This document shows, piece after piece, positions 5,384 through 55,758 of a stretch of 64,000 bases of DNA. The stretch spans positions 19,081-83,080 of the forward strand of contig JANDLV010000011.1 in assembly GCA_024330185.1 (NCBI GenBank), written 5' to 3'. Each line of letters begins with the position of its first letter. Position 1 is the first letter of the stretch. This DNA comes from Candidatus Siliceabacter maunaloa (GTDB taxonomy: Bacteria > Actinomycetota > Thermoleophilia > Solirubrobacterales > Solirubrobacteraceae). The position numbers and the translations under genes were made by a program. Under the pieces are notes generated by a model that saw only the letters and a list, made by a program, of their open reading frames with translations, did not search any database and was not told the DNA's origin.

Positions 5384-5397
5384 CGACCCCGAACGGA

Positions 5398-21429: not shown

Positions 21430-22437
21430 ATGAACGTCGTGCTGTTCGCCTACCAGACCTGGGGCCACCGGGTGCTGCAAGCGCTGACCGAGTCCCGCCA
21501 CGAGGTCGTGCTGGTCGCCACCCACCCGCCGGGCGACGACGCGTACGAGACGATCTGGACCGACTCCGTCCAGAGGCTCGCGGAGCAGCACGGGCTCCCG
21601 GTGCTCGTCAAGGCCCTTCCGGACGACGAGACGGCGGCACGCGTGCGCGACGCCGGCGCCGACGTCATGGTGGCGTGCAACTGGCGGACGTGGATCCCGC
21701 CCGAGATCTTCGCTGCGCCGCGGCTGGGCACGCTCAACGTTCACGACTCGCTGTTGCCCGCCTACGCCGGCTTCGCGCCGCTCAACTGGGCGGTGATCAA
21801 CGGCGAGCCGGAGGTCGGCATCACGGCCCACGTCATGGACGAGCGGCTCGACCGCGGCGCGATCATCCTGCAGCCGCGAGTGACCGTCGAGCCGGACGAC
21901 ACGATCGGCGATCTGTTCGCCAAGACGCTCATGCTGTTCGGGCCGACGACCGTCGCGGCGCTCGACCACATGGAGCACGGTACCGGCGAGCGCCGCCCCC
22001 AGGATCCCGCACAGGCCACGTTCTTCCACAAGCGCGCCGAGGAGGACAGTCGCATCGACTGGATTTGGCCGGCGCAGGACATCGCCAACCTCGTCCGCGC
22101 CCAGGCCGACCCGTATCCGAACGCCTTCAGCTTCCATGGCGCGGCACGCCTGCAGATCCGCTCGGCCTCCGTCTCGCCCACCCGCGCGGGCGGCACGCCG
22201 GGCCGGATCTTCGCCCGTCAGGGCGACGGGGTGATCATCGTGTGCGGGCCGGACGCGCGCCGCGGTCGCAATCACGGCCTCGTCATCGAGCAGCTGCGCA
22301 CCGAGGACGGCGAGGAGCTCGCGGCGGGCGACTACTTCAAGCGGCTCGGCGGATACCTCACCGCACATCCGGGCGACCCGGACCGCTCTGCGCGGGCGGT
22401 CGGGCAGCGGATCGTCGCGGCCGGCGCAGCGCGTTGA
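21430..22437 (+). CDS. Fmt-like formyltransferase (candidate N5-hydroxyornithine formyltransferase)
   Basis: 335 aa. The N-terminal formyltransferase fold carries NVHDSLLPAYAGFAPLNWAVINGE and there is an Fmt-like C-terminal domain. The gene sits in a hydroxamate NRPS context. Confidence 0.85.
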   Translation: MNVVLFAYQTWGHRVLQALTESRHEVVLVATHPPGDDAYETIWTDSVQRLAEQHGLPVLVKALPDDETAARVRDAGADVMVACNWRTWIPPEIFAAPRLGTLNVHDSLLPAYAGFAPLNWAVINGEPEVGITAHVMDERLDRGAIILQPRVTVEPDDTIGDLFAKTLMLFGPTTVAALDHMEHGTGERRPQDPAQATFFHKRAEEDSRIDWIWPAQDIANLVRAQADPYPNAFSFHGAARLQIRSASVSPTRAGGTPGRIFARQGDGVIIVCGPDARRGRNHGLVIEQLRTEDGEELAAGDYFKRLGGYLTAHPGDPDRSARAVGQRIVAAGAAR

Positions 22438-24946: not shown

Positions 24947-25174
24947 ATGACCAACCCGTTCGAGGATCCCGGTGGCACGTACGTCGTGCTCATCAACGAC
25001 GAGGGGCAGCACTCGCTGTGGCCGTCGTTCGTCGCGGTGCCGGCCGGCTGGACGGTGGCGCACGGGGAGAGCTCCCGCAGCGCATGCCTGGACTACGTCA
25101 ACGAGAACTGGACCGACCTGCGACCCGCCAGCCTCATCCGGAGCATGGACAGTGGCGCCCGTCATACCTCGTAA
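24947..25174 (+). CDS. mbtH: MbtH-like protein
   Basis: [35 protein letters not shown] carries the full MbtH signature. This is an internal ATG of ORF 24884..25174, preceded by GAAGAGGGGAGA. Confidence 0.9.
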
Positions 25175-26504
25175 GGCGCCCGCCGAGTGCGTGCACGACG
25201 TCCTGGGCATCGGCTTCGGTCCGTCGAACCTCGCGCTCGCGATCGCGATCGACGAGCACAACCGCTCGCGGCCGGGCGATGCCGCCCTCGACGCCGTGTT
25301 CATCGAGAAGCAGAGCCGATTTGGATGGCACCGCGGCATGCTCATCGACGACGCAACGATGCAGGTGTCGTTCCTTAAGGACCTCGTCACGATGCGCGAT
25401 CCGACGAGCGCCCACAGCTTTGTTGCCTACCTGCACGATCGCGGGCGCCTGGTCGACTTCATGAACCACAAGACGCTGTTCCCGCTGCGGATCGAGTTTC
25501 ACGACTACCTCGAGTGGTCCGCCGGGCGGATGTCGCATCTCGTCGAGTACGGCGGCGAGGTCGTCGACGTGCAGCCGGTGCGCGAGGACGAGGTTGTGTG
25601 GGCCTTCGACGTCACGGTCCGCGAGCCCGGGCGGGAGCCGATCGTGCGCCGGGCGCGCAACCTCGTCGTCGCCATCGGCCTGGAGCTGCGCATGCCGCCG
25701 GGGATCGAGCGGTCGGCGCGCATCTGGCACAGCCGCGACTTCCTGCGCCACGTCGAGGAGCTGGCGGACGGTCCGCGGCCCGGTCGCTTCGTCGTCATCG
25801 GCGCGGGCCAGAGCGCGGCCGAGGTCACGGGCTACCTGCATCGCGAATTCCCGGAGGCCGAGGTCTGCGCGGTCTTCTCGCGCTACGGCTACTCGCCGGC
25901 CGACGACAGCCCGTTCGCCAACCGCATCTTCGATCCCGAGGCGGTCGACCTGTACTACGACGCGCCGCCGGCCGCCAAGCGGATGCTGCTCGACTACCAC
26001 CGCAACACGAACTACTCGGTCGTCGATACGGAGCTGATCGAGGAGCTCTACCGTCGCTCGTACCAGGAGAAGGTGACCGGTCGCGAGCGCCTGCGGATCC
26101 TGCACACGTGCAAGGTGCTCGGGGTTCGCCACGGCGACGGCGCGGTGCTGACGACGCTCGAGTCGCTGGCGACCGGTGAGCGCAGCGAGCTCGAGTCCGA
26201 CGCGGTGATCTTCGCCACCGGCTACCGGCCGGTGTGCCCGCTGGGGGTCCTCGGCCAGGCACGATCGCTGTGCGCCACCGGCGACGGCGGGATGGTGTGC
26301 ATCCGGCGCGACTACCGAATCGCCACGACATGCGCGACGCGCGCCGCGATCTACCTGCAGGGCGCCACCGAGCACACGCACGGCATCGGCTCGACCCTGC
26401 TGTCGAACACCGCCGTGCGCGCTGGAGAGATCCTTGACTCGGTCCTGCGCCACGACCCGCAACGCAGCGACGGCTCTCTGGTTTACGCCGGCGAGCAGGC
26501 CTGA
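25152..26504 (+). CDS. L-ornithine/L-lysine N-hydroxylase (flavin-dependent N-monooxygenase)
   Basis: Frame of ORF 24972..26504. Motifs: GIGFGPSNL (FAD), [10 protein letters not shown] (NADPH) and [11 protein letters not shown]. The start is GTG 25152 (overlapping the mbtH stop) or GTG 25191. Confidence 0.9.
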
Positions 26505-30753: not shown

Positions 30754-30987
30754 ATGCAATCGGAGCGTGTGACCGTCACCATGCCCGCCGACGTCGCCAA
30801 GGCTGCGCGAGAGCGGGTGGAAGCCGGGGAGAGCCGGTCGTTGAGCGCCTTCGTCGCCGAGGCCGTGGAGGAGAAGGCGAAGCGAGAGACGTTGCGTGAG
30901 GTTCTCGACGACATCCGGGGCGAGATCGGCCCCCCGGGTCCCGAGGCGGAGGCGTGGGCCGACCGCGTCCTCGGTCGCCTGCGCTGA
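30754..30987 (+). CDS. vapB: ribbon-helix-helix antitoxin (VapB/CopG-like)
   Basis: 77 aa. RVTVTMPADVAKAARERVEAGESRSLSAFV is an RHH pattern. It overlaps the downstream PIN gene. Confidence 0.7.
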   Translation: MQSERVTVTMPADVAKAARERVEAGESRSLSAFVAEAVEEKAKRETLREVLDDIRGEIGPPGPEAEAWADRVLGRLR

Positions 30988-31352
30988 TCCTCGACGCCGG
31001 TGCGCTGATCGCCTACGAGCGCGGCGACCAGGAGGTCGTGACGCTGCTCGAGGGATCAGAGCGTGAGGGCGTGAGCGTGACGATTCCGGCGGGCGTGCTC
31101 GCGCAGGCGTGGCGCGACGGCGCACGTCAGGCGCGCCTGGCCCGGCTCGTCGGCGCCGAGGATGTCATGGTTGTCCCGCTCGACGAGCCCGTCGCCAAGG
31201 CGGTCGGGAGCCTGTGCGCATCGACCGGTACCAGCGATCTCGTCGATGCCTCGGTCGTCATCGCCGCGCAGGCGACCGGCGGTCTAGTCCTCACCTCCGA
31301 CCCTGGCGACCTGCGCCGCCTCGACCCCTCGCTGCCGCTGGAGCGGGTCTGA
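30954..31352 (+). CDS. vapC: PIN-domain toxin VapC
   Basis: LILDAGALIAYERGD, DLVDASVVIAAQ and LVLTSDPGDL supply the acidic PIN residues. The start is uncertain (GTG 30954). Confidence 0.75.
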   Translation: MGRPRPRSPALILDAGALIAYERGDQEVVTLLEGSEREGVSVTIPAGVLAQAWRDGARQARLARLVGAEDVMVVPLDEPVAKAVGSLCASTGTSDLVDASVVIAAQATGGLVLTSDPGDLRRLDPSLPLERV

Positions 31353-31368
31353 CCATATCCTCGTCGCC

Positions 31369-32595
31369 ATGGCCACAGCGACACCGGACACCTACACCGA
31401 GAAGACCGACGAGCAGAAGGCCATCATCGAGATGGTCCGCCAGTTCGCCGACGAGCAGATCATCCCCAACGCCGAGCACTACGACCACGAGGACGAGTTC
31501 CCCGAGCCGATCGTCGAGCAGATGAGGGAGCTGGGGCTGTTCGGCGTGACCATCCCCGAGGAGTACGGCGGGATGGGTCTGGACCTCACGACCTACGTGA
31601 TGATCGTCGAGGAGCTGTCGCGCGGCTGGATCTCCATCAGCGGGATTATCAACACCCACTTCATCGGTTCCTACCTGCTCATGAAGTTCGGCACCGACGA
31701 GCAGAAGCAGCGCTGGCTGCCGCGCATGGCCACGGGCGAGATCCGCGCCGCGTTCAGCCTCTCCGAGCCCGAGGTGGGCTCCGACGTGCAGGCCATCAAG
31801 ACGAGCGCCAAGAAGGTCGACGACAGCGAACCGGCCATGTACGAGATCAACGGCCAGAAGATGTGGGTCACCAACGGCCTCATGTCCGGCCTGGTCTTCG
31901 TGCTGGTCAAGACCGACCCCGACGCCGACCCGCGCCACCGCGGCATGACCTGCTTCGTCGCCGAGAAGGAGCCGGGCGTCGGCGAGAACACGGGCGAGTA
32001 CGCGGGCTTCACCGTGCCGCCCAAGCTCAAGAAGATGGGCTACAAGGGCGTCGAGTCCACCGAGCTGGTCTTCGACGGCTACCGCTGCCCGGCCGAGAAC
32101 GTGCTGGGCGGGGAGCAGGCCGGCCTCAACAAGGGCTTCGCGCAGATGATGGACGCGCTGGAGGTGGGCCGGGCCAACGTGGCCGCCCGTGGCGTGGGAA
32201 TCGCCCAGCGGGCCCTGGAGCTGGCGCTGCGCTACAGCCAGGAGCGCAAGACATTCGGCAAGCCGATCGCCGAGCACCAGGCCATCCAGTTCAAGCTGGC
32301 CGACATGGCCACCCAGATCGAGGCCGCACGCCTGCTCACGCTGAAGTCGGCGCGCCTCAAGGACGCCGGCGAGCGGTCGGACCTCGAGGCGGGCATGGCC
32401 AAGCTGTTCGCCTCGGAGGCAGGGCGCTTCTGCGTCGAGGAGTCCTTCCGCATCCACGGCGGCTACGGCTACTCCAAGGAGTACGAGATCGAGCGTCTCT
32501 ACCGCGACGCGCCGCTGCTGCTCATCGGCGAGGGCACGTCGGAGATCCAGCGGATGGTCATCGGCAAGAAGCTCCTGTCGCGGCACAAGATCTGA
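31369..32595 (+). CDS. acyl-CoA dehydrogenase
   Basis: 408 aa with AFSLSEPEVGSDV, YKGVESTELVFD, and the GEGTSEIQRMVIGK catalytic-Glu region. Confidence 0.9.
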   Translation: MATATPDTYTEKTDEQKAIIEMVRQFADEQIIPNAEHYDHEDEFPEPIVEQMRELGLFGVTIPEEYGGMGLDLTTYVMIVEELSRGWISISGIINTHFIGSYLLMKFGTDEQKQRWLPRMATGEIRAAFSLSEPEVGSDVQAIKTSAKKVDDSEPAMYEINGQKMWVTNGLMSGLVFVLVKTDPDADPRHRGMTCFVAEKEPGVGENTGEYAGFTVPPKLKKMGYKGVESTELVFDGYRCPAENVLGGEQAGLNKGFAQMMDALEVGRANVAARGVGIAQRALELALRYSQERKTFGKPIAEHQAIQFKLADMATQIEAARLLTLKSARLKDAGERSDLEAGMAKLFASEAGRFCVEESFRIHGGYGYSKEYEIERLYRDAPLLLIGEGTSEIQRMVIGKKLLSRHKI

Positions 32596-32662: not shown

Positions 32663-33040
32663 ATGGCCCCCGACGACGCCAAGGTCCTCCTCGAGGAGGC
32701 GGTCACCCGCTTCCTCGACGAGGTGCCCACCTTCAAGCAGATGAAGCTGGTGGCCGGGGTGGACCTGCGGGGCCGTGGCGATACGCAACAGTACCGCGTG
32801 GAGCTCCCCGGCCCGAAGGTCACCAAGGACATCGCGCCCGACGCGCGGGTGCGCGTGGAGATGCCGCGCGCGTTCTTCAACGTGATGGCCCGCGAGGCCG
32901 GGGTCTCCGACTGGGTCGAGGCCTTCACCTACGGCCAGGCCAAGGCCACCGGGAGCGCCGAGATCCTCAAGCTGATCCAGCACGTGGTGCAGCGCCACGA
33001 GGAGCGCGCACGGACCCGCCGCAGCCGTTCGCACGAGTAG
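32663..33040 (+). CDS. SCP2 sterol-binding-domain protein
   Basis: 125 aa. The call rests on an SCP2-like pattern and its position directly after the ACAD. It is a moderate-confidence family call. Confidence 0.55.
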   Translation: MAPDDAKVLLEEAVTRFLDEVPTFKQMKLVAGVDLRGRGDTQQYRVELPGPKVTKDIAPDARVRVEMPRAFFNVMAREAGVSDWVEAFTYGQAKATGSAEILKLIQHVVQRHEERARTRRSRSHE

Positions 33041-33181: not shown

Positions 33182-33862
33182 TCAGCGCGTCAGCACGGCC
33201 GAGCACTCCTCGGCCAGGGCTCGGGTCGCCCCCTCGAGGACCTGATCGCGCCACTGCTGGTAGACGACCACGGGGATGTCGTGTTCGCGGCAGACGTCCG
33301 CCACCGTACGGTCGTCGCGCTCGACGGCGAGGACGATGCCGAGCCGCTCCTCGGGGCCCAGCGAGCGCGGGCCGTCAGCGTGGGCCACGCGTGGCGGCAG
33401 CGGATCGTCGCGGACGATGCGTCCGCCGCGAAAGCTGGTCGCCGCGATCACCAGCCCGGCGCTCACCACGATCACGTCCTTGATGACGTACTGGCCCTCG
33501 AGCGTGGGGGCCAGGCCCGTGAACAGGCGATCGGTCAGCAGCACCAGCGGCGACAGGATGCCGACGAGCAGGACAGCCAGCAGCCAGATCCCCAGTCGCA
33601 TCCCGCGGCCGGTCAACAGGCACAGGCCTATGAGGCACTCCACGGTGGCGACGAAGACCAGTCCTGCCCAGTCCGGCACGAGGCCGAAGGTCAACAGGCT
33701 CATCGTGGTCACCACCAGATCCTCGGCCGGGCTCACGCCCGGGAGGTACTTCAAGACCCCGAAGCCCAGGAATATCGCCCCCACCGAGATCCGGAGGGCC
33801 ATCGCGCTGTGGCCGACCAGCCAGAGGTGCAGCGCGTTCTCGACGGCGATGATTCGTCGCAT
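33182..33862 (-). CDS. DoxX/DUF417-like 4-TM membrane protein fused to an IS3/IS911-type HTH domain
   Basis: The N-terminal ~150 aa contain four hydrophobic helices. The C-terminal EERLGIVLAVERDDRTVADVCREHDIPVVVYQQWRDQVLEG resembles the transposase orfA HTH. Confidence 0.6.
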   Translation of the reverse strand: MRRIIAVENALHLWLVGHSAMALRISVGAIFLGFGVLKYLPGVSPAEDLVVTTMSLLTFGLVPDWAGLVFVATVECLIGLCLLTGRGMRLGIWLLAVLLVGILSPLVLLTDRLFTGLAPTLEGQYVIKDVIVVSAGLVIAATSFRGGRIVRDDPLPPRVAHADGPRSLGPEERLGIVLAVERDDRTVADVCREHDIPVVVYQQWRDQVLEGATRALAEECSAVLTR

Positions 33863-33954
33863 CTCGGCTGCTGCGGTGTGGCCCCTGCGTCCGGGTCACC
33901 CGACCGCGAACGATTTACCCAACTCTTAGTTGCGGGGCGCAGGCCGGTCGGCCC

Positions 33955-34200
33955 CTACAGCTCCGCTCCGTCCTCGTAGAGCTTGAGCACCCGCACCGCG
34001 CCCGGGGGGGACGCGTCGAGGCACAGGCGGCAGAGCACGCACTCGTCCACGTTGTCCTCGACGATCCTCACGCCGCCGCCGTCCTCGGCGGCCGCGTAGA
34101 TGTCGACCGGGCAGACCTCCTCGAGCCTCGCGGCCAGGTCGGGATCGGCGGCGTGGTCGTCGGCCACCTCGATGCCGATGAACAGGGCGTCGGTCCTCAT
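33955..34200 (-). CDS. small ferredoxin-like protein with one CP...CxxCxxC cluster site
   Basis: 81 aa starting at ATG 34200 inside ORF 33955..34437. The only Cys residues are in EVCPVD and DECVLCRLC. Its ATG overlaps the TGA of the upstream ligase (ATGA). Confidence 0.6.
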   Translation of the reverse strand: MRTDALFIGIEVADDHAADPDLAARLEEVCPVDIYAAAEDGGGVRIVEDNVDECVLCRLCLDASPPGAVRVLKLYEDGAEL

Positions 34201-36410
34201 GGGGCGGCCTCCTCGCCGAGCTTCGCCTTCACCGCGTCCGGGATCTGGTCGATGCGCTCGACGACCTGAATTCCCGCCTCCTGCAGCCGCTCGATCTTCT
34301 GGGCGGCCGTGTCCTCCTCGCCCTCGACGATCGTGCCGGCGTGGCCGAAGGACATGCCCTTCATCTCCTCGGAGTCCATGAACCGCCCGGCCATGAAGGC
34401 GACGATGGGCAGGCGCGAGTCGTTGTCGGCCACCCACTGGGAGAGCTGGGCCTCCATCCGCCCGCCCGGCTCGGTGTAGATGACGATGGCCTCCGTCTGC
34501 TCGTCGGCCTCGAAGAGCGGCATGAGCTCGGCGTAGGTCGAGCCGATGATCGCGTCGCCGCCGATGGAGATAGCCGTCGAGACGCCCAGGCCGGCGGCGG
34601 TCAGGGTGGAGGAGATCTCCGTGGTCATGCCGCCCGAGCGCGACATCACGCCCACGCGGCCTGGCTGGTAGGCCTTCGCGGCGTCCTGCGCTGGCCCGCC
34701 GATGCCGCCCATCTTGGCCACGCCGGGGACGATCAGGCCCAGGCAGTTGGGGCCGATGATGCGCGCGCCGTAGAGGTTGGCCAGCTCGACCATCTGCGCG
34801 ACGTCACGGCGCGGGATGCGCTCGGTGACGACTACGATCAGGCCGATGCCGGCCAGGATGGCCTCGAAGACCGCGTCCTTGGTGAAGGCGGGCGGGACGG
34901 TCACCACCGACCCGTCGGGCGCCTGCCCGCCGTTGTGCTCGACGACCTGGCCGATGGTGTCGAAGACCGGCACGCCGTGGACCTCGCGGCCCTCGCGCCC
35001 CGGCGTCACGCCGCCGACGATCTTCGCGCCGTAGTCCAGGCACTCCCGTGTGAGGTTGACCGCCTCGCGCCCGGTGATGCCCTGGACGATGAAGGTGGTG
35101 TCCTCGCGGACGAGGATGCCCCGCGGGGCATCCTGCCCCTTGGTCTGATGAGGAGCTCGGCCTCCGGGCTCGCTTGACCGGGGCTTCGCCCCTCCTCCCG
35201 TGGCGTCGCCCTTGAGCTTCTCCACGGCCCGCTGCGCCGCCTCGTGCAGGGAGACCGAGCGGTCGAAGTGCTCGACGCCGTAGCGGCGCAGGATCTTGAA
35301 GCCCTCCTCCTCCCAGGCGCCGGGGATGCGGAAGACCGCGATCGTCTGCGCCGGGTCCCTGCCAAGCTCCAGGCAGGCCTTGATCACGCCGCGCGCGACG
35401 ATGTCGACGCGGGTGTTGGAGACGATCGACATCATCACCGCGATCGTCTCCACGCCGTCCTTCTGGAGCACCGCCTTGGCCAGCCCGCAGGCCTTGGCCA
35501 CCGACGGGTTGCCGCCGATCTCCGAGTAGTTCGCCGGCCTGCCGCCGACCGACTGCACGGCGTCGGTCAGCGTGAGCGAGCCGCCGCCCGCGCCGATGAC
35601 CAGGCCCAGGTCGCCGTGGAAGCCGGCGTCCTGGCCCTGGATCACGCCGCGGTGGTCGGCGCCGTCCACCCGGGCCACCGTCTCCTCGAAGGCGCTGGGA
35701 GTGTGCACGCCGCGGTCCTCGTCGTCGCCGATGCCCAGGTCGCGCAGCAGCGCGCGCTGGCGGCCCTCGGCCTCCTTCTCCATCTCCACGTGCGCGTCCA
35801 GGGCGACGAACGAGCCGTCCTCGAGCTCGGCCAGCGGGTTGATCTCGGCCAGGAGCAGGTCGTTGTCCTGGAACGCGCGGGCCAGGCGGGTGAGGATGGG
35901 CACCAGACGGGTCAGCGCGCGGCCGGTGACCCCCGCCGCGGCGACGGCCTGCTTGGCCTGGAAGTCCTGGGCGGGCAGGAGGCAGGAGAGGCGCTGGCGC
36001 CCGACGTGGTCGGGGTGCTCGCGGGCCACCTGCTCGATGTCGATGCCGCCCATGTCGCTGAACAGCAGCAGCGGGCAGCGCGCGGTCCCGTCCCACACCA
36101 CGCTCGCGTAGTACTCCTGCTTGACCTGCGCGCGCGGGTCGACCAGCACGCCGCGCGGGGTGTGGCCGTTGATCTCCAGCTCCAGGACGTCGGCTGCGTG
36201 GCGCTGGGCCTCCTCGGGCGTGTCGGCGAATTGCACGCCGCCGGCCTTCATGCGCCCGCCGGTGAGCACCTGGGACTTGATGACCGTCGGCCCGCCGATG
36301 CGCTCGGCGACCTTGCGGGCCTCGCCCGCGTCGGTGACGAAGCCGTAGTCGGTGACCGGGATGCCCGCGCGCCTGACGATCTCGCGCGCCTCGTACTCGT
36401 AGAACCTCAT
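34197..36410 (-). CDS. fused succinyl-CoA-synthetase-family ligase (SucC-like ATP-grasp beta part + SucD-like alpha part)
   Basis: 737 aa from ATG 36410 (MRFYEYEAREIV). The beta part carries VIKSQVLTGGRMKAGGV and ANYSEIGGNPS. A Gly/Pro-rich linker follows. The alpha part carries IVQGITGREA, MSRSGGMTTE and the phosphohistidine motif FGHAGTIV. Confidence 0.85.
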   Translation of the reverse strand: MRFYEYEAREIVRRAGIPVTDYGFVTDAGEARKVAERIGGPTVIKSQVLTGGRMKAGGVQFADTPEEAQRHAADVLELEINGHTPRGVLVDPRAQVKQEYYASVVWDGTARCPLLLFSDMGGIDIEQVAREHPDHVGRQRLSCLLPAQDFQAKQAVAAAGVTGRALTRLVPILTRLARAFQDNDLLLAEINPLAELEDGSFVALDAHVEMEKEAEGRQRALLRDLGIGDDEDRGVHTPSAFEETVARVDGADHRGVIQGQDAGFHGDLGLVIGAGGGSLTLTDAVQSVGGRPANYSEIGGNPSVAKACGLAKAVLQKDGVETIAVMMSIVSNTRVDIVARGVIKACLELGRDPAQTIAVFRIPGAWEEEGFKILRRYGVEHFDRSVSLHEAAQRAVEKLKGDATGGGAKPRSSEPGGRAPHQTKGQDAPRGILVREDTTFIVQGITGREAVNLTRECLDYGAKIVGGVTPGREGREVHGVPVFDTIGQVVEHNGGQAPDGSVVTVPPAFTKDAVFEAILAGIGLIVVVTERIPRRDVAQMVELANLYGARIIGPNCLGLIVPGVAKMGGIGGPAQDAAKAYQPGRVGVMSRSGGMTTEISSTLTAAGLGVSTAISIGGDAIIGSTYAELMPLFEADEQTEAIVIYTEPGGRMEAQLSQWVADNDSRLPIVAFMAGRFMDSEEMKGMSFGHAGTIVEGEEDTAAQKIERLQEAGIQVVERIDQIPDAVKAKLGEEAAP

Positions 36411-36481
36411 AGCGCGCGCCACCCTACCCATCGCGTGCACGAGGAGGACTGCCGGCGGCAGGCCGGGCATCCTCTAGGGCG

Positions 36482-37051
36482 ATGCCGCCCCTGCGTGCCT
36501 CCGACCGCGACCGCGATGTCGTCGTCGACCGCCTCCGGGTCCATCATCTCGCGGGGCGCCTGACGGTCGAGGAACTGGAGGAACGCGTCGCCCGAGCGCA
36601 CGCCGCGGTCACGCTCGCCGACCTTGACGCGCTGCAGGAGGATCTGCCGGACGTCGCCAAGGCCCCGGTGCCGCGCACGGCCGGCTCTTCGGTCCCGCGC
36701 ATGCCCGGGCACGGGACCTTCAGCCAGCGTCGCGAGCTGGCCGTGCCGGTCGAGGTAGCCCGCGAGGACGCGCTGGTGCACCTCCTTCCGGCACTCGCCA
36801 ACCACGGCTACCACCTGGTCAGCTCCACCGATCGTACGCTCAGCTTCGCCGGCTCGGCCCGGCCGGTGTGGACGTACGTCGTGTCGGTGCTGGTGTTCTC
36901 GATCGGCCTGGTCGCTCTCCTGCACACCAGAGCCCACTGGCTGACCCTCGAGTTCCGTGGTCAGGGGCCGGTCGACTCGGTCATGGTCGCCCACGGCGTC
37001 GCTTCCCTGCCGGTGCGCCGGATGTTCGCCCGCCTGGGCGAGGCCGCCTGA
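36482..37051 (+). CDS. DUF1707 (SHOCT-like) domain membrane protein
   Basis: LRASDRDRDVVVDRLRVHHLAGRLTVEELEERVARAHAAVTLADLDALQEDLP is a typical DUF1707 N-terminus. There is a C-terminal hydrophobic segment. Confidence 0.65.
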   Translation: MPPLRASDRDRDVVVDRLRVHHLAGRLTVEELEERVARAHAAVTLADLDALQEDLPDVAKAPVPRTAGSSVPRMPGHGTFSQRRELAVPVEVAREDALVHLLPALANHGYHLVSSTDRTLSFAGSARPVWTYVVSVLVFSIGLVALLHTRAHWLTLEFRGQGPVDSVMVAHGVASLPVRRMFARLGEAA

Positions 37052-37092
37052 GCCGCCCCGGTGCCGGATCCGGGCGCGGTATGGTCACCCAT

Positions 37093-37350
37093 ATGAAGAC
37101 GACCATAGATATTGCCAATGGCCTGCTGGCGCAGGCCAGGGCGCGCGCGCAGGCGGAGGAGACGACGTTGCGCGCGCTGATCGAGGACGGCCTGCGCCGC
37201 GTGCTGGCCGAAGACCGGTCACCGCAGGGGGAGCCCTTCGAGATGGGGACCTGGGGAGAGCCCGGCGACCCCTGGGACGAGGAGGCCGTGCAGGCGATGC
37301 TCAGGCAGCGCGAGCCCCTACCTCCGCCGTGGCGCGAGGACGGGGACTGA
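37093..37350 (+). CDS. vapB: VapB-type antitoxin
   Basis: MKTTIDIANGLLAQARARA is a typical type II antitoxin N-terminus. It is an internal ATG of ORF 36868..37350 (alternative ATG 37081) and sits directly upstream of a PIN gene. Confidence 0.65.
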   Translation: MKTTIDIANGLLAQARARAQAEETTLRALIEDGLRRVLAEDRSPQGEPFEMGTWGEPGDPWDEEAVQAMLRQREPLPPPWREDGD

Positions 37351-37360
37351 CCACCGCGCC

Positions 37361-37795
37361 GTGGTCGCGCTCGACACCAACATCCTCGTCTACGCCTACC
37401 GTCCGGCGAGCCCGCATCACGAGGCCGCTCGACGCGCAGTGCGGGCGGCGCGCGACACCGGCGCGTGGGGCCTTCCCTGGCCGGTCGCGCACGAGTTCGT
37501 GCGGGTCGTGACGGCGGCGGCACCGACAGCCGGCAAGCCGGCGCCGCTGGCGGCCGCCCTGGAGGAGATCGAGGGTCTGCTCAGCCGCGGCGGCGCTGTC
37601 GCGCTGGGCGAGACGCCCGACCACTGGCACCGCCTGCGGACGATCGCCGAGATGGCGAAGGCGTCGGGGTCACGCATCCACGACGCCCGCATCGCGGCGA
37701 TCTGTCTGAGCCACGGCGTGCGCGAGCTGTGGACGGCCGACCGTGACTTCAGCGCGTTCGGTGGGTTGCGGACGCGCAACCCGCTGTCCGGCTGA
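37361..37795 (+). CDS. vapC: PIN-domain toxin VapC
   Basis: VALDTNILVYAY, HDARIAAICLSHG and ELWTADRDF. Confidence 0.8.
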   Translation: MVALDTNILVYAYRPASPHHEAARRAVRAARDTGAWGLPWPVAHEFVRVVTAAAPTAGKPAPLAAALEEIEGLLSRGGAVALGETPDHWHRLRTIAEMAKASGSRIHDARIAAICLSHGVRELWTADRDFSAFGGLRTRNPLSG

Positions 37796-37875: not shown

Positions 37876-38934
37876 TCAGGCCTGCTGCATCCCGTACTGC
37901 TCGGCCAGCTCAGGGTCCTTGGCGGCCAGCATCTCGGCCAGGTCGACCATCACGCGGCACTGCTTCCAGGTCGCGTCGTCCTGCATCTTGCCGTCGATCA
38001 TGTGCACGCCGCGCCCGTCGGGGATGGCCTCGATCACCTTCCGGGCGAAGGCGACCTCGTCGGGGTCGGGGGAGAACACCTTCCTGGCGATGTCGATCTG
38101 CACGGGGTGCAGCGACCACGTCCCCACGCAGCCCAGCAGGAACGCCGCGCGGAACTGGGTCTCGCAGCCCGCGACGTCCTTGATGTCGCCGAAGGGCCCG
38201 TAGAAGGGGAGGATCCCGGCGCTGGTGCAGGCGTCGACCATGCGCGCGACGGTGTAGTGCCAGGGGTCCTGCTGGGCGCTGGTCCGGGGGGCCTCCAGGT
38301 CGCCGTCGACCGGGTCCTCGATCACGCGGTAGCCGGGGTGCCCGCCGCCCACGCGGGTGGTCTTCATGCGCCGGAAGGCGGCCAGGTCGGCCGGGCCCAG
38401 GCTCATGCCCTGCATACGCGGTGAGGCGTGGGCGATCTCCTCGACGTTGGCCACGCCCGTCGAGGTCTCGAGGAGCGCGTGCACCAGCAGCGGACGGTCC
38501 AGGCCGGCGCGCGCCTCGAGCTGGGCCAGCAGGCGGTCAACGTAGTGGATGTCCCACGGCCCCTCGACCTTGGGCACCATGATGACCTCGAGCTTGTCGC
38601 CGATCTCGCCGACGAGCTGTGTGAGGTCGTCGAGGACCCACGGCGACTCGAGCGCGTTGACGCGCGTCCACAGGGCGGTCTGCCCGAGGTCCATCGTCTT
38701 GCCGACCTCGATCAGGCCCGCCCGCGCCGCCTCCTTGCGGTCCGCCGGGATCGCATCCTCGAGATTGCCCAGCAGGATGTCGGTCTTCATGGCGATGTCG
38801 GCCGCCTTGGCGACCATCTTCTCGTTGGAGAAGTCCAGGAAGTGGATCATCCGTGTCGGCGTGACTGGCATCTCGCGGATCGGGTAGGGAGCGTTCAGCG
38901 CAAGGGGCTTGTAGAAGTCGCGTGGGTGTCGCAT
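37876..38934 (-). CDS. mcl: HpcH/CitE-superfamily acyl-CoA lyase, Mcl type (malyl-/beta-methylmalyl-/citramalyl-CoA lyase-like)
   Basis: 352 aa with [39 protein letters not shown] and [14 protein letters not shown]. From memory these match the long Chloroflexus-type Mcl rather than CitE proper. Confidence 0.8.
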
Positions 38935-39033
38935 AGGGCGCAGACCCTATTGACCTGATCACCTGACGGCGAAGTGATCCAAGCGGGCGTCCACCGCGCT
39001 AGGGCCGAAAGAAAGCGACCTACGGAGGATCAC

Positions 39034-39849
39034 GTGTCAGAGACGCTCAACTACGTATACGAGACCATGGACGACGTCCACAAGGACAAGTCCGCCGCCA
39101 CCCGCCGGCAGATGATTGCCGGTACCGGTGCGCTACTGGGGACCATGGGCATGCTCGCCTGGGCCGATCAGGCCGAGGCGCAGATCAGCGAGGACTCGCC
39201 CAACACGGTGGAGAACATCCTCAACATCGCGGCGACGGCCGAGGTCCTGGCCACCATCGTGAACACGGTGGGCGGCGAGCGCATCGAGCTCAACACGCTC
39301 GAGCGGAAGAACATCGAGGGCGCCGCCTTCGAGGAGAAGATCCACTACGACGTGCTGATCTCCGACGGCGTCGGCGGCGTGCCGCTGACCAAGACCATCT
39401 GGGTCCCGGACGCCGTCTTCTCCAACCGCACGGAGTTCTTCGGGACCCTGGCGGTGGGTGACCAGATCTTCATCAACGCCTACCTGCTGGGCACCACGGT
39501 GTTCGCGCGGGCCGGCGGCAGCACCAACGCGCGCTTCGCGCGCTTCGCGGCCGAGTTCATGTCCGCCGAGGCCGTGCACCGCGCGCTGGCCATCCAGTCG
39601 CTCAGCGGCAACACCGCGAGCGGCAACGACCGCGTGTTCGCCAAGTTCGCGCAGACCGAGCCGGCGACCACCGTGCCCAACACCGGCCAGCCGGGCTTCT
39701 TCGACATCAACGGGGCGGTCACGCAGCTCCAGGCGGCCGGCTTCGGCTTCGGCGAGGAGGGCGCGACCCCGGGCGCGTTCTACGAGTACGACGAGGTCTC
39801 GGCGCGCACGCCGGAGCCCAGCTTCGTCAACACCCGCTCGCCCTCCTAG
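39034..39849 (+). CDS. Tat-secreted ferritin-like-domain protein
   Basis: GTG 39034 follows GGAGGA. There is a twin-arginine leader (ATRRQMIAGTGALLG) and an ILNIAATAEVLA..FEEKIHY..AEAVHR helical pattern of ferritin-like domains. Confidence 0.55.
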   Translation: MSETLNYVYETMDDVHKDKSAATRRQMIAGTGALLGTMGMLAWADQAEAQISEDSPNTVENILNIAATAEVLATIVNTVGGERIELNTLERKNIEGAAFEEKIHYDVLISDGVGGVPLTKTIWVPDAVFSNRTEFFGTLAVGDQIFINAYLLGTTVFARAGGSTNARFARFAAEFMSAEAVHRALAIQSLSGNTASGNDRVFAKFAQTEPATTVPNTGQPGFFDINGAVTQLQAAGFGFGEEGATPGAFYEYDEVSARTPEPSFVNTRSPS

Positions 39850-39937: not shown

Positions 39938-39965
39938 CTGCGTGCCGGGGTGCAAAGCTTGGGGC

Positions 39966-40499
39966 ATGAGCGACCACTTCACGACCGACCAGGCTGAGCG
40001 CGAAGCGTCCGGCGCCCGCCCCTACGGACGCTACCTCGAGGAGTTCGAGGTCGGCGCCGTCTACAAGCACTGGCCGGCCAAGACGGTGACCGAGGCCGAC
40101 GACCACCTGTTCTGCCTCGTCACCATGAACCACCACCCGCTGCACATCAACGACGTGTACGCGGGCGCCTCCCAGCAGGGCCGCAACGTGGTGGTGGGCC
40201 CGCTGGTCTACTCGCTGGCGCTGGGCATGAGCGTCTCCGACGTGTCGGGCAAGGCGATCGCCAACCTCCAGACCCAGGAGCTGAGCCACCCGGCCCCCGT
40301 GTTCCACGGCGACACCCTGTTCGTCGAATCCGAGGTGCTGGAGAAGAAGGAGTCGCGCTCCAAGCCCGACCGGGGCACCGTCAGGGTCCACACCCGCGTC
40401 TTCAACCAGGACGCCACGCTGGTGGCGGAGTTCAAGCGCCTGGTGCTCGTCCCCCGTCGCGAGGCCGGCGCCCCGCCGGCCGAGGGGGACGTGGAGTAG
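39966..40499 (+). CDS. MaoC-like (R)-specific enoyl-CoA hydratase/dehydratase (single hot-dog)
   Basis: ATG 39966 inside ORF 39942..40499. Motifs: DHLFCLVTMNHHPLHIND and GDTLFVESEVL. Confidence 0.8.
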   Translation: MSDHFTTDQAEREASGARPYGRYLEEFEVGAVYKHWPAKTVTEADDHLFCLVTMNHHPLHINDVYAGASQQGRNVVVGPLVYSLALGMSVSDVSGKAIANLQTQELSHPAPVFHGDTLFVESEVLEKKESRSKPDRGTVRVHTRVFNQDATLVAEFKRLVLVPRREAGAPPAEGDVE

Positions 40500-40980: not shown

Positions 40981-42816
40981 GTGAGCCGTACCGTGAGCAG
41001 CCAGACCACCGTGCCGACGACCAACCAGAAGCTGCTCGATTGGGTCGAGGAAGTCGCGGCGTTGACCCGCCCGGACACGGTGCACTGGTGCGACGGCTCG
41101 GCGGAGGAGTACGACGCCCTGGCCCAGCGGCTCGTCGAGGCCGGCACGTTCGAGCGCCTGGCCGACGCCAAGCGGCCCAACTCCTACCTGGCCCTCTCGG
41201 ACCCGGGCGACGTGGCCAGGGTCGAGGACCGCACCTACATCTGCACCCCCACCGAGGCCGAGGCTGGCCCGACCAACAACTGGCGCGACCCGCAGGAGAT
41301 GCGCGGCGTGCTCGAGGGCCTCTTCGACGGCGCGATGAAGGGACGCACCATGTACGTGGTGCCCTTCTCCATGGGCCCGCTGGGCTCGGACAAGAGCCAC
41401 ATCGGGGTGCAGCTCACCGACTCGGCCTACGTCGCCGTGTCCATGCGCATCATGACCCGCATGGGTAGGGGCGCGCTGGACGTGCTGGGCGCCGACGGCG
41501 ACTTCGTGCCGTGCCTGCACTCGGTGGGCATGCCCTTGGATGAGAGCGTCGCCGACGTGCCGTGGCCCTGCAACGCCGACAACAAGTACATCGTCCACTT
41601 CACCCGCGAGCGCGAGATCTGGTCCTACGGCTCGGGCTACGGCGGCAACGCGCTGCTGGGCAAGAAGTGCTTCGCGCTGCGCATCGCCTCGATCATGGCC
41701 CGCGACGAGGGCTGGATGGCCGAGCACATGCTCATCCTCAAGCTCACCTCGCCCGAGGGCGAGGTCAAGGTGATCACCGGCGCGTTCCCCAGCGCGTGCG
41801 GAAAGACCAACCTGGCGATGCTGATCCCGACGCTGGAGGGCTGGACGGTCGAGACCGTCGGCGACGACATCGCCTGGATGAAGTTCGGCGAGGACGGGCG
41901 CCTGTACGCCATCAACCCCGAGTCAGGCTTCTTCGGCGTGGCGCCGGGCACCGGCGAGAAGACCAACCCCAACGCCCTGGCCACCATCCGGGCCAACACC
42001 ATCTTCACCAACTGTGCGCGCACCGACGACGGCGACGTGTGGTGGGAGGGGATGACCGCTCAGCCGCCCGACCACGCCATCGACTGGCACGGCGACGACT
42101 GGACGCCCGACAGCGACACGCCGGCCGCCCATCCCAACGCCCGCTTCACCACGCCGGCCGCGCAGGACCCTGCCATCGCGCCGGAGTGGGAGGATCCCCA
42201 GGGCCTCGCGGTGGACGCGATGCTCTTCGGCGGCCGCCGCGCCACGGTGGTGCCGCTGGTCACCGAGGCCTTCGACTGGGAGCATGGCGTGTTCCTGGGC
42301 GCGACCATGGCCTCCGAGAAGACCGCGGCCGCCGCGGGCACGGTGGGCGACCTGCGCTTCGACCCCTTCGCGATGCTGCCCTTCCTCGGCTACGACATGG
42401 CCGAGTACTTCCGCCACTGGCTCGAGGTCGGGCGGCGCGATGGCGCACAGCTCCCCCGCATCTTCCAGGTCAACTGGTTTCGCAAGGATCCGCAGACTGG
42501 CCGGTTCCTGTGGCCGGGCTTCGGCGAGAACAGCCGGGTGCTGGCGTGGGTCTTCGGCCGCGTGGCGGGCCACGCCGAGGCCGTCGAGACGCCCATCGGC
42601 CTCCTGCCTCCCGTGGGCGAGAACGGCATCGACATCAGCGGGCTGGACATCGATCCCGACGCCCTCGCCCAGGTCCTGGAGGTCGACGCCGACGCGTTCC
42701 GCGAGCAACTCCTCCAGGTCAAGGAGCACCTTGCCGTGTTCGGCGACGACCTGCCCCGCGAGATCCACGATCAGCTCGCCGCGCTCGAGCGGCGTCTCGA
42801 GAAGGCGGCGGCGTAG
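40981..42816 (+). CDS. pckG: phosphoenolpyruvate carboxykinase (GTP)
   Basis: 611 aa with [39 protein letters not shown], and NWFRKD. Confidence 0.95.
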
Positions 42817-49172: not shown

Positions 49173-50134
49173 GTCGCGCCCGCCCGCGCCTCGAGTGCCC
49201 GGGTGAGAGCGGGGACCTCGAGCGCCGGGTCCTCCTCGTCCAGTGCGCGCAGCGCCGCCCGCCGGCCGCCCAGCGCGCGCAGGCCGCGGTCGCCGTGCTC
49301 GGCGTGGAAGTCGGCCACCGCGCCCGCACGACGGGCGGCCAGGCGGCGGGCGGGAAGGTCGAGGCCCGCGCGGTGCGCGTCGAGCGCGTCGATGAGTTGG
49401 TCGAAGCCCTGCACGGGAGCCACGGACGATACGCAGACGACCTGCGTAGCACGTTCCCCGATGGAGCGCAGCGTCGCGAGGAGATCCCGCCGGGCGCGCT
49501 GGGCTACCGTGCCCAGGTCGGCCTTGGTGACCACGAGCACGTCGGGGATCTCCATGATCCCGCTCTTGAGGAACTGCAGCACGTCGCCCGAGCCCGGTTG
49601 CACCACGACGGCCACCGTGTCGGCCACCTCGGCCACCTCGGTCTCCGACTGACCCACGCCGACCGTCTCGATCACGACCACGTCGAAGGCCGCGCCCAGC
49701 GCCTGGGCCGCCGCGCGGGTGGCGGGCGCCAGGCCGCCCAGGCGGTCACCGGCGGCCGTGGAGCGGATGAAGGTCGCGCGGTCGGCGGGGTCGGAGACGA
49801 TCCGTGCCCGGTCGCCCAGCAGCGCGCCGCCCGAGCGCTTGGACGAGGGGTCCACGGCCAGCACCGCGACGCTGCGCTGACGCTCGCGCCACGCGCGCAC
49901 GAGCTCGGACAGCAGCGTCGACTTGCCCACGCCGGGCGGGCCGGTGACCCCGACGACGTGCGCCCGGGCCTCGCCGCCCAGCGCACCCGGCGCCACCTCG
50001 TGCAGCAGCGCCTCGACCTCCCCGGCCTCCTGCGCCGGCCGGCTCTCGACCAGGTTGAGCACGGCGGGCGCGACGCTCAGGTCCCCGTCACGCAGCCGCC
50101 GCCCGAGGTCGGCGCCGGAGGGCGCCTCGCTCAC
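49169..50134 (-). CDS. meaB: methylmalonyl-CoA-mutase-associated G3E GTPase (MeaB/ArgK)
   Basis: GTG 50134 overlaps the mutase TGA. Motifs: VGVTGPPGVGKSTL, LAVDPSS, ETVGVGQSE and VTKAD. Confidence 0.85.
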   Translation of the reverse strand: MSEAPSGADLGRRLRDGDLSVAPAVLNLVESRPAQEAGEVEALLHEVAPGALGGEARAHVVGVTGPPGVGKSTLLSELVRAWRERQRSVAVLAVDPSSKRSGGALLGDRARIVSDPADRATFIRSTAAGDRLGGLAPATRAAAQALGAAFDVVVIETVGVGQSETEVAEVADTVAVVVQPGSGDVLQFLKSGIMEIPDVLVVTKADLGTVAQRARRDLLATLRSIGERATQVVCVSSVAPVQGFDQLIDALDAHRAGLDLPARRLAARRAGAVADFHAEHGDRGLRALGGRRAALRALDEEDPALEVPALTRALEARAGAT

Positions 50135-52119: not shown

Positions 52120-52141
52120 GGCAACCTGATGATATGCGGCC

Positions 52142-55386: not shown

Positions 55387-55758
55387 CTACGAGCCGTTGC
55401 CCTGCGTCACGGCCGCCGCGAAGGTGGTCGCGCCGGGCAGGGACCCGCTGGTGACCAGGTCGGACCAGACGTAGTTGAGGGGGACCTGATACCAGCCCGA
55501 GCACTGGGCGCGCATGTCGACGAACTCGTCGCCGTACCAGAAGCGGTCCCAGTCGTACTTGTGCTCGAACTCTATGATCTGGAGCATGCTGTAGCGGTCG
55601 TCGCGGGTGCGGTAGACCATGTAGGACAGCGCGCCATAGCGCACGGAGAAGGGCGTGATCTGGCCCAGCGCGTACTCGAGGTCGTCACCGCGGAAGCCGG
55701 TGGCATACCAGGGGAGCTGGACCATGCCGGGCGACTTACGCTGATCCGTCGTGCTCAT
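55387..55758 (-). CDS. hypothetical protein (123 aa) translationally coupled to ccr
   Basis: This is the tail of ORF 55387..56943. Its ATG at 55756-55758 shares one base with the ccr TGA at 55758-55760. The protein is Trp/Tyr-rich (QLPWYATGF..FEHKYDWDRFWYGDEF). No family recognised. Confidence 0.55.
   Translation of the reverse strand: MSTTDQRKSPGMVQLPWYATGFRGDDLEYALGQITPFSVRYGALSYMVYRTRDDRYSMLQIIEFEHKYDWDRFWYGDEFVDMRAQCSGWYQVPLNYVWSDLVTSGSLPGATTFAAAVTQGNGS

Follow-up and report, generated by a model that had tools for sequence, protein, structure and literature searches.

Acyl-CoA ligases of the nucleoside diphosphate (NDP)-forming kind, built from an ATP-grasp beta part and a CoA-binding alpha part, are known as succinyl-CoA synthetase (SCS; SucCD), citryl-CoA synthetase (CCS; CcsAB), the N-terminal part of ATP-citrate lyase (ACLY) and the malyl-CoA-forming MtkAB. 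Neither the ligase chemistry nor the associated CoA ester lyase chemistry needs a redox cofactor; we know of no ferredoxin subunit of CCS or ACLY, and literature searches returned no iron-sulfur (Fe-S) partner of SCS, CCS or ACLY, in line with the preliminary description of the locus discussed here, and no citramalyl-CoA or malyl-CoA synthetase of the type described below. Within the ethylmalonyl-CoA pathway of Rhodobacter, malyl-CoA is converted to malate by Mcl2 after Mcl1 has acted. The present analysis concerns a 64,000-nucleotide stretch of DNA ("the window") from Candidatus Siliceabacter maunaloa (Thermoleophilia, Solirubrobacterales; assembly GCA_024330185.1, contig JANDLV010000011.1, positions 19,081 to 83,080), in which a fused beta-alpha acyl-CoA ligase gene overlaps the gene of a small ferredoxin-like protein. 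Soil surveys often rank the Thermoleophilia among the more abundant bacteria, and the central metabolism of this class is known almost wholly from annotation. The conserved trio of beta gene, alpha gene and ferredoxin-like gene, and not the fusion of the first two, is the important feature of this locus; the trio occurs throughout the class and also outside it. The ligase and its small partner occupy the following positions of the window:

34197-36410, minus strand: fused beta-alpha NDP-forming acyl-CoA ligase, 737 amino acids (aa), from Pfam, motifs and AlphaFold2 (AF2)
35211-36410, minus strand: beta-like (SucC/CcsA-like) half, residues 1-400, ATP-grasp followed by the acid-binding domain
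35118-35210, minus strand: Gly/Pro-rich linker, 31 aa, residues 401-431, the former beta C-terminal tail
34200-35117, minus strand: alpha-like (SucD-like) half, residues 432-737, CoA-binding and phosphohistidine domains
33955-34200, minus strand: ferredoxin-fold protein, 81 aa, with one [4Fe-4S] ligand set (C30, C54, C57, C60)

The small protein has relatives in at least 587 species-representative genomes and in more than 3600 metagenomic clusters at 90% identity. Gene order was compared by tblastn of the window proteins against the best 80 of these species loci, with about 12 kb of DNA examined per genome; the 80 genomes belong to the Solirubrobacterales, Thermoleophilaceae, Conexibacter, Baekduia, Capillimicrobium or Gaiellales metagenome-assembled genomes (MAGs), or carry phylum-level labels only. 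The order is near-invariant and reads, with strands in brackets, PEPCK(-) MaoC(-) / lyase(+) beta(+) alpha(+) small(+) / orf125(-) ACAD(-), where PEPCK is phosphoenolpyruvate (PEP) carboxykinase and ACAD an acyl-CoA dehydrogenase; in a majority of the 80 loci, the genes for MaoC and PEPCK are transcribed away from those for lyase and ligase. Every Thermoleophilia locus with upstream sequence has the alpha gene directly 5' of the small gene, and in 71 of 78 loci the two genes overlap at stop and start, the shared stretch being 4 nt long in 58 loci and 1 nt in 13. The lyase gene lies 5' of beta on the same strand in most Thermoleophilia, at a median distance of 137 nt and within 150 nt in 28 of 54 loci, and the ligase itself is conserved class-wide at 70-90% identity. 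Genes for 2-oxoacid:ferredoxin oxidoreductase (OFOR), citryl-CoA lyase (CCL), family-III CoA-transferase or PrpD were absent within 6 kb on either side in 82 Thermoleophilia loci and from the window.

Beyond the class, a metagenome scan seeded with dicluster ferredoxin forms returned 358 relatives, among which 67 loci could be evaluated; the ligase alpha gene stands directly 5' of the ferredoxin gene in 48 of them (72%). Nineteen ferredoxin relatives are not linked to a ligase and follow, for example, an M16 peptidase gene or lie beside DnaK, and the sister-clade ligase of locus L096 has no small gene. The ligase-ferredoxin linkage is thus old and strong, and it is not exclusive. An initial formulation that the pair always stands beside a lyase was toned down, since a lyase gene accompanies it in only 13 of the 48 alpha-linked metagenomic loci.

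The small gene starts within the end of the ligase gene, whose TGA overlaps its ATG (ccccATGAgg, 34197-34200), and GGAGG is found about 9 nt 5' of that ATG. Its 81-aa product contains exactly four cysteines, C30 (followed by P31), C54, C57 and C60, in the pattern CP...CxxCxxC; exactly four cysteines recur in all 79 loci in which they were counted, and the pattern itself in 78. With more than 3600 database relatives and four invariant cysteines the small open reading frame (ORF) is far beyond chance; its ratio of nonsynonymous to synonymous substitution rates (dN/dS) is about 0.44, by a method that is unreliable at a third-position G+C content (GC3) of about 0.96. The protein has no Pfam match, Fer4 included, and only weak sequence matches to NuoI and other Fer4 proteins; its AF2 model (mean predicted local distance difference test, pLDDT, 89.6) adopts a (beta-alpha-beta)2 ferredoxin fold, for which the top Foldseek matches are FwdG, PsaC and the Fe-S domains of RNA polymerase (RNAP) subunit D and ABCE1 (TM 0.57-0.63, probability 0.98-1.0, E only 0.008-0.1). 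Distant homologues beside distant ligases (L088, P0393, P0394, L174) possess eight cysteines and match Pfam Fer4, as dicluster ferredoxins. From this pattern the forms of the Thermoleophilia and of loci L086 and L092 have lost the first three cysteines of motif 1 and the CP of motif 2 (now SP), together all four ligands of cluster I, and have kept the CP of motif 1 and the CxxCxxC of motif 2, together all four ligands of cluster II. The clean loss of one full ligand set beside the retention of the other argues strongly, if indirectly, for a single [4Fe-4S] cluster still being bound; the retained ligand set is complete. Sequence, fold and ligand alignment thus agree with the preliminary description, which had noted the ATGA overlap and cysteines sufficient for a single Fe-S cluster. 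Residues other than ligands are also invariant: F7, D52-E53 and Y75 in all aligned contexts, and K73 and L74 in the Thermoleophilia forms.

Two more conventional identities for the small protein were considered. The names FixX and PreA, attached to a few members by JGI, find no support in gene content, as genes for ETF, FixC or dihydropyrimidine dehydrogenase are lacking in the window and in the related loci; an OFOR delta subunit was rejected, since the OFOR of locus L174 has its own delta gene beside the extra ferredoxin. We favour the view that the ferredoxin-like protein would be a bound structural or redox-sensing subunit and not an electron wire, because its gene is universally retained in the Thermoleophilia, is translationally coupled to the alpha gene, and has been reduced to one cluster; this pattern resembles that of ferredoxin domains that have turned structural, as in RNAP subunit D and ABCE1.

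The ligase ORF is open on the minus strand for 757 aa from an upstream ATG (34197-36470); the 737-aa form begins at the ATG at 36410 (MRFYEYEAREI), a start that agrees with the N-termini of all homologues, and the same 737-aa gene is called in record L084 (GCA_973374305.1, contig CCXAPD010000047.1). Pfam assigns ATP-grasp_2 to residues 3-194 (9.7e-47), CoA_binding to residues 436-530 (3.1e-18) and Ligase_CoA/Succ_CoA_lig to residues 583-729. The beta half carries the motifs AEINPL (188-193), A-DHRG (251-255), AGGGS (274-278), PANYSEIGGNP (292-302), SNTRVD (331-336) and FRIPG (360-364), and the alpha half GPNCLG (553-558), TEPGG (646-650) and FGHAG with the phosphohistidine (688-692); the Glu of AEINPL aligns with Glu197-beta of Escherichia coli (alignment of the E197A mutant 1JLL against the wild type). 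ORF, Pfam domains and motif positions together confirm what had been described beforehand, a single 737-aa SucC-like/SucD-like ORF with a Gly/Pro-rich linker and the FGHAG and ANYSEIGG motifs. The protein is a member of the NDP-forming acyl-CoA synthetase superfamily (SCS/ACLY/ACD), and its catalytic machinery is intact, including FGHAG, TEPGG, GPNCLG and both Glu residues for His phosphorylation. The two halves are packed in the AF2 model (predicted TM-score 0.75) as in ACLY or SCS, and Foldseek aligns the model to human ACLY with a TM-score of 0.75 over about 790 columns, both halves falling on residues 1 to about 810; residues 403-432 are disordered, with a linker pLDDT below 50. A promoter and terminator scan of positions 33800-36700 detected nothing.

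Family models place the ligase below three curated equivalog cutoffs: it scores 237.3 vs. 370 for SucC (NF001913), 271.5 vs. 336 for SucD (NF004230), and 165.1 vs. 604 for MtkA (NF010647). Its identity to an actinobacterial SucC is 31% and to an actinobacterial SucD 39.5%; the closest sequence matches of the alpha half and the N-terminal ATP-grasp part are Thermus and archaeal SCS, with the ATP-grasp part nearest to Thermus SCS, and the C-terminal acid-binding domain of the beta half shares features with CcsA of H. thermophilus (alignment including 6HXQ_B). An insertion in the acid-binding domain, D-x-DHRG, is found in the window ligase and in CcsA/ACLY and not in SucC or MtkA; AGGGS(LT) replaces NGAGLAM of SucC, ANYSEIGGNP replaces ANFLDVGGGA, and SIVSNTRVD corresponds to NNTRID in CcsA and to NIFGGI/FGGIVRCD in SucC, where the NIFGGI-type loop is presumably the one contacting succinate. 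The acid-binding motifs are thus closer to CcsA/ACLY than to SucC, as had been suspected from motif variants read as nearer the ATP-citrate lyase/citryl-CoA synthetase type. Searching 1.84 billion representatives yielded a graded family of homologues with 38-76% identity and the same motifs. In a neighbour-joining tree of labelled SucC, MtkA and CcsA references and representatives, the ligase family forms its own clade outside the SucC/MtkA group and the CcsA/AclB group; the Aminobacter MtkA clusters with the SucC of E. coli and is remote from the window clade. The MtkAB and SucCD reference sequences were drawn from a plasmid collection, which contained no near relatives of the ligase (at most 36% identity). 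Low identity, scores below the family cutoffs and the separate clade argue that the ligase is not an orthologue of SucCD or MtkAB; it belongs to a distinct, uncharacterised clade of the SucCD/CcsAB/ACLY superfamily.

The fusion of the two halves, which the preliminary description had made its headline as a natural SucC-SucD fusion, turned out to be of minor significance. Among the 75 loci in which both halves could be read, beta and alpha are separate genes in 74, the sole fused locus being L001; in the split loci the two genes usually occupy different frames, and their stop and start codons abut. At locus L083 (90% identity) the beta gene ends in ...VEKVHGEGVETR* and alpha starts 2 nt downstream; at L085 (89% identity) the long beta tail ...RGGAEPRSSEPGGRASLQDAGLDAPRR* is present, followed by CCA ATG TCC in the same frame. 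Relative to L085, the window shows a 12-nt in-frame deletion that removed both the stop codon and the ATG of alpha, and the junction has no in-frame ATG, GTG or TTG nearby, so that the window lacks an independent alpha start. The linker, GDATGGGAKPRSSEPGGRAPHQTKGQDAPRG (residues 401-431), has a GC3 of 0.71 vs. 0.99 and 0.97 in the two halves, and is therefore young, weakly constrained sequence. The fusion is real at the sequence level, recent, limited to a single lineage, and probably harmless. Some 25 other database "fusions", mainly from long-read MAGs in ENA, either keep the alpha Met after a junction of 2-10 residues or have out-of-frame beta C-termini (including P0004, P0009-P0011, P0014-P0017, P0026, P0029, P0048 and P0055); since both patterns are expected from single-base indels, most of them look like indel artefacts, and frameshifts in long-read assemblies inflate the apparent fusion count. 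Fusion as a family trait is ruled out by these artefact patterns together with the 74 split loci.

The genes around the ligase-ferredoxin pair, and those elsewhere in the window that bear on its function, are the following:

37876-38934, minus strand: Chloroflexus-type malyl-CoA/beta-methylmalyl-CoA/citramalyl-CoA lyase (Mcl)
36482-37795, plus strand: genes inserted between lyase and ligase in this genome only, namely DUF1707 (36482-37051), a small antitoxin-like ORF and a PIN toxin (37361-37795)
39942-40499, plus strand: single-domain MaoC hydratase resembling the N-terminal half of Mch; PEPCK follows it on the same strand
40981-42816, plus strand: GTP-type PEPCK, kept in synteny with MaoC at most related loci
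31369-32595, plus strand: ACAD, convergent with the ligase operon
32663-33040, plus strand: orf125, a conserved 125-aa ORF with no family match
50131-52410, minus strand: single-chain B12-dependent acyl-CoA mutase, below the equivalog cutoff for methylmalonyl-CoA mutase (MCM)
55758-57671, minus strand: ORF with a crotonyl-CoA carboxylase/reductase (Ccr) match at residues 238-622, true start probably near 56980

The preliminary description had placed an Mcl-type lyase, a MaoC hydratase and an ACAD nearby; all three were found, and the type of the lyase follows from its match to the Chloroflexus aurantiacus malyl-CoA lyase (MCL) 4L7Z (508 bits, E 1.8e-151), with 501 bits against the Roseiflexus MCL and far lower scores against Rhodobacter/Methylobacterium Mcl, CLYBL and Mycobacterium tuberculosis CitE. 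The lyase is accordingly an MCL orthologue, and the window contains no second CitE-like gene. The MaoC protein resembles the N-terminal half of the Chloroflexus-type mesaconyl-CoA hydratase Mch (8HGN, 4E3E). The top NCBIfam models of hydratase and lyase, RipB/Ich and RipC/Ccl, are reached only below their cutoffs (124 vs. 340 and 133 vs. 375). For the ACAD, which lacks an N-terminal extension, the second-best solved relative is the (2S)-methylsuccinyl-CoA dehydrogenase Mcd (6ES9, 307 bits); Ccr passes its equivalog cutoff (TIGR01751, 510.5 vs. 378.55), and the MCM-family single-chain mutase is probably an ethylmalonyl-CoA mutase (Ecm)-like enzyme. Taken together, the window genes would cover the characteristic steps of the ethylmalonyl-CoA pathway (Ccr, Ecm-like, Mcd-like, Mch-like and Mcl), and the conversion of malyl-CoA to malate is the only characteristic step for which the window offers no other candidate gene.

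Several further observations were made in this neighbourhood. Two VapBC-like antitoxin/PIN pairs and the DUF1707 gene are inserted in the metabolic cluster (36482-37795 and 30754-31352), one of these insertions splitting the lyase-ligase operon, which is unbroken in most relatives. The 125-aa orf125 always follows the Mcd-like ACAD gene in about 50 related loci and has no match in Pfam, NCBIfam or the PDB; it might stand in for the N-terminal extension of canonical Mcd, to which it shows no sequence match. An ORF of 291 aa between lyase and MaoC (38974-39849, plus strand) has no family match, and an ORF of 226 aa just 3' of the Fe-S gene (33182-33862, minus strand) shows weak matches to DoxX in its N-terminal and to HTH_Tnp_1 in its C-terminal part. 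Farther away, the window encodes a 3890-aa nonribosomal peptide synthetase (5398-17070, plus strand) with three adenylation, four condensation and three carrier domains, flanked (17840-21291, 21430-22437, 24972-26504 and 2877-5066) by two ABC exporters, a formyltransferase, a Lys/Orn N-monooxygenase and an MMPL transporter; together these genes look like a hydroxamate-siderophore cluster.

Based on gene context, our tentative preference, held at a little under even odds, is that the ligase is an ATP-forming malyl-CoA/malate ligase that finishes the ethylmalonyl-CoA route. Beta half, alpha half and one-cluster ferredoxin-like protein would together form a three-component, phosphohistidine-dependent NDP-forming CoA ligase that catalyses (S)-malyl-CoA + ADP + Pi <-> (S)-malate + ATP + CoA; the ligase would replace the thioesterase Mcl2 and recover one ATP, and malate could proceed via oxaloacetate to PEP through PEPCK. 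A side activity on succinyl-CoA or citramalyl-CoA would be possible. A hydroxy-dicarboxylate substrate is favoured by the partnership with Mcl, by an acid-binding domain of CcsA-like type and by the lyases found beside distant relatives, with malate as the best fit and citramalate as a possible one; both substrate and direction are read from gene context. The preliminary description had listed malate, citramalate, mesaconate, itaconate and citrate as candidate substrates, and its example of an ATP-conserving conversion of malyl-CoA to malate is the one that has held up best, if still short of an even chance, while its split citrate lyase, with one Arg and an MCL partner, has become very doubtful. 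A more far-reaching proposal joins this step, in the Thermoleophilia, to an obligate gamma subunit of a new class of di-/tricarboxylate-CoA ligases in which the [4Fe-4S] cluster would be structural or redox/O2-sensing; this combination we consider conceivable, with the odds leaning clearly against it.

Distant members of the ligase clade provide further gene contexts. Locus L086 (44% beta identity) has the order beta, alpha, small gene (four Cys) and CitE-like lyase; L088 (43%) has an M24 enzyme and a CitE-like lyase followed by beta, alpha and a small gene with eight Cys. At L092 (40%; 1023-10117), large and small aconitase subunits are followed by beta, alpha, small gene and a citryl-CoA lyase that scores above the curated cutoffs; this may be a three-gene variant of citryl-CoA synthetase with a one-cluster ferredoxin. 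Locus L095 (2732-12526) combines a class-I fumarase-like pair, a GntR regulator, beta, alpha and a dicluster ferredoxin with methylaspartate ammonia-lyase, an amino-acid ABC transporter and a CitE-like lyase, a set that fits the sequence methylaspartate -> mesaconate -> citramalate -> citramalyl-CoA -> acetyl-CoA + pyruvate, and suggests a methylaspartate pathway in which an ATP-dependent citramalyl-CoA ligase and a CitE-like lyase replace the clostridial citramalate lyase complex. The lyase contexts of these four loci therefore indicate 2-hydroxy-dicarboxylates or tricarboxylates as substrates. Of the 48 metagenomic loci with linked alpha gene, a CCL is present in eight, a CitE-type lyase in five, and OFOR subunits stand upstream in eight. 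The OFOR type is exemplified by L174 (2140-7213), and also by L117, L123, L126, L133 and L176, where OFOR delta, alpha, beta and gamma genes are followed by ligase beta and alpha and a second dicluster ferredoxin; this compact operon is equipped to turn a 2-oxoacid into the acid with formation of ATP, and in these relatives the ferredoxin could simply be the electron acceptor, whereas the Thermoleophilia loci have no OFOR nearby. Other clade members adjoin a family-III CoA-transferase or a PrpD-family protein. Collectively, these gene contexts suggest that the clade acts on several C4-C6 di- or tricarboxyl-CoA esters and not on one substrate. As a separate observation, plasmid p4 of Azospirillum brasilense (L089, 4562-13997) carries a divergent SucCD-like pair, PANFLEIGGEAY, flanked on one side by an aldehyde dehydrogenase and on the other by a molybdopterin oxidoreductase/4Fe-4S/DmsC set, a sulfoacetaldehyde acetyltransferase being nearby; this pair may act on a sulfonated acid.

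A number of points weigh against the malyl-CoA/malate assignment and the role given to the ferredoxin-like protein. The remaining 27 of the 48 alpha-linked metagenomic loci have neither a lyase nor OFOR in the examined DNA, and the OFOR and CoA-transferase contexts of other relatives are typical of succinyl-CoA. The ligase has a single Arg (FR[IVL]PG across the clade, FRIPG in the window), as does SucC (VRLxG), where CcsA/AclB have two (V-R-R-x-G); the second of these we take to be the ACLY residue that binds the extra carboxylate of citrate. Within the window, the inserted genes part lyase and ligase, which must therefore be transcribed separately. Context does not separate malate from C5 acids, as an Mcl-type lyase also cleaves citramalyl-CoA and beta-methylmalyl-CoA; if the Thermoleophilia have no canonical SucCD, the ligase must at least also serve the tricarboxylic acid (TCA) cycle; and, since ligase and lyase need no redox cofactor, any role given to the Fe-S protein is a guess. 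As to the arginines, RR versus single Arg is unreliable as a predictor of citrate use, because P0259 combines FRLPG with a citryl-CoA lyase.

The main rival explanation, to which we give somewhat better than one chance in four, is a housekeeping one: the ligase would be a divergent SucCD serving the TCA cycle and succinyl-CoA derived from propionyl-CoA, the ferredoxin would be the acceptor for a 2-oxoglutarate:ferredoxin oxidoreductase encoded elsewhere, and the linkage would descend from an ancestral OFOR-ligase-ferredoxin operon. The class-wide presence of the ligase at 70-90% identity, the SucC-like single Arg, and the JGI label (succinyl-CoA synthetase beta subunit) all speak for it, as do the eight metagenomic relatives in OFOR-beta-alpha-ferredoxin order and those beside a family-III CoA-transferase. 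Complete sets of TCA cycle genes have been reported for three Thermoleophilia genera, Gaiella, Solirubrobacter and Thermoleophilum, the genes counted being unspecified (PMC6741124), and neither the window nor the roughly 12 kb examined per related genome contains a canonical sucCD; cluster names and the literature likewise yielded none for the Thermoleophilia. However, the ligase falls below the curated SucC and SucD cutoffs; CcsA/ACLY-type motifs replace the NIFGGI-type loop of SucC; the conserved operon includes Mcl and not TCA cycle genes; elsewhere in the clade some members have lyases of the citryl-CoA or citramalyl-CoA type as partners; OFOR is missing within 6 kb of the 82 Thermoleophilia loci and throughout the window; and a canonical actinobacterial-type SucC does exist in soil MAG collections, in a taxon that is not assignable. 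Activation of branched C5 dicarboxylates ((S)-citramalate, mesaconate or itaconate), leading via MaoC and the Mcl-type lyase to acetyl-CoA and pyruvate, would make the locus the ATP-dependent equivalent of those itaconate and methylaspartate routes that use a CoA-transferase; the Chloroflexus MCL cleaves (S)-citramalyl-CoA too, RipB/Ich and RipC/Ccl are the top models of hydratase and lyase, and at L095 a clade member occurs amid a mesaconase-type pair, methylaspartate ammonia-lyase and a CitE-like lyase. This route is nevertheless improbable, because both Rip scores are far short of their cutoffs, the lyase reaches orthologue level with MCL and not with Ccl, pyruvate as a product would leave the conserved PEPCK linkage unexplained, and Ccr and the mutase indicate the ethylmalonyl-CoA route, whose C5 intermediates are CoA esters already.

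On a further reading, a citryl-CoA synthetase and the CitE-fold lyase would act as a split ATP-citrate lyase, yielding acetyl-CoA and oxaloacetate, the latter passing to the adjacent PEPCK. The CcsA/ACLY-type motifs, the label of citryl-CoA synthetase large subunit in some source annotations, and the pairing of a clade member with aconitase and a curated-cutoff citryl-CoA lyase at L092 are in keeping with such a system; it is very unlikely all the same, given that the second Arg of the CcsA/AclB pair is Ile in the window, that the lyase is an orthologue of MCL, for which we know of no citryl-CoA activity, and that the hydratase and the Mcd-like ACAD would have no role in citrate cleavage. Slighter still is the chance that the fusion arose from an error of assembly or sequencing, or that the small ORF is an unrelated soluble ferredoxin that lies downstream by coincidence. 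Many database fusions do show signs of indels (out-of-frame beta C-termini, or a retained alpha Met), and the same ferredoxin family also occurs away from ligases, near M16 peptidase and DnaK; yet what separates the window from L085 is one clean in-frame loss of 12 nt, with stop and ATG gone and no other alpha start, the same 737-aa gene is called in record L084, and the linkage of small gene and alpha holds in every Thermoleophilia locus with upstream sequence and in 72% of the distant relatives, with overlapping codons conserved.

If the malyl-CoA/malate assignment is true, assimilation of acetate, fatty acids or polyhydroxybutyrate would regain, for each malate, one ATP that the textbook ethylmalonyl-CoA pathway loses, and automated "succinyl-CoA synthetase" labels on these genes would be misleading. 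Synthetic cycles for carbon fixation or glyoxylate could also profit from a malyl-CoA or citramalyl-CoA ligase that is ATP-neutral. If the ferredoxin-like protein is indeed a bound subunit, the SucCD/ACLY superfamily would gain its first Fe-S-containing members with these ligases, and the tight and ancient linkage of this protein to an enzyme without redox chemistry could bring to light an Fe-S protein put to a new use there, regulatory or structural.

The fusion itself is ordinary; what is new is that an abundant class of soil bacteria conserves a ligase-ferredoxin(-lyase) module, and this module can be compared with each of the known systems in turn. With SucCD the ligase shares the succession of ATP-grasp beta and CoA-binding and phosphohistidine alpha domains, the catalytic His, both Glu residues and the single Arg; it differs in its scores below the cutoffs, the replaced acid-binding motifs, the DHRG insertion, the ferredoxin-like third gene and the lyase as operon partner. 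CcsAB and the N-terminal part of ACLY have in common with it the D-x-DHRG insertion, the GGGS, GGNP and NNTR-type motifs and an adjoining C-C lyase that releases acetyl-CoA; the ligase nonetheless belongs to a separate clade, has one Arg in place of RR, and is partnered by a CitE-fold Mcl and not, as in CcsAB, by a CCL of the citrate synthase fold. The beta-linker-alpha order of the window gene and its disordered linker are those of ACLY, an architecture of which the fusion is a small-scale repeat. The small protein retains the (beta-alpha-beta)2 fold of 2x[4Fe-4S] ferredoxins, but the Thermoleophilia form has lost the cluster I ligands, and its gene overlaps the ligase alpha gene. MtkAB matches the ligase in the proposed reaction (malate + ATP + CoA <-> malyl-CoA) and in the logic of its neighbourhood, as mtkAB at L090 adjoins a CoA ester lyase, and PEPCK occurs here in place of the ppc that Methylobacterium extorquens presumably groups with mtkAB and mcl; in contrast, MtkA is closely related to SucC, whose motif types it shares, and MtkAB has no Fe-S partner. 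The proposed position of the ligase in the pathway, from malyl-CoA to malate, is that of the thioesterase Mcl2; whereas Mcl2 is a CitE-fold hydrolase that loses the energy of the thioester, the ligase reaction is reversible and would conserve this energy as ATP.

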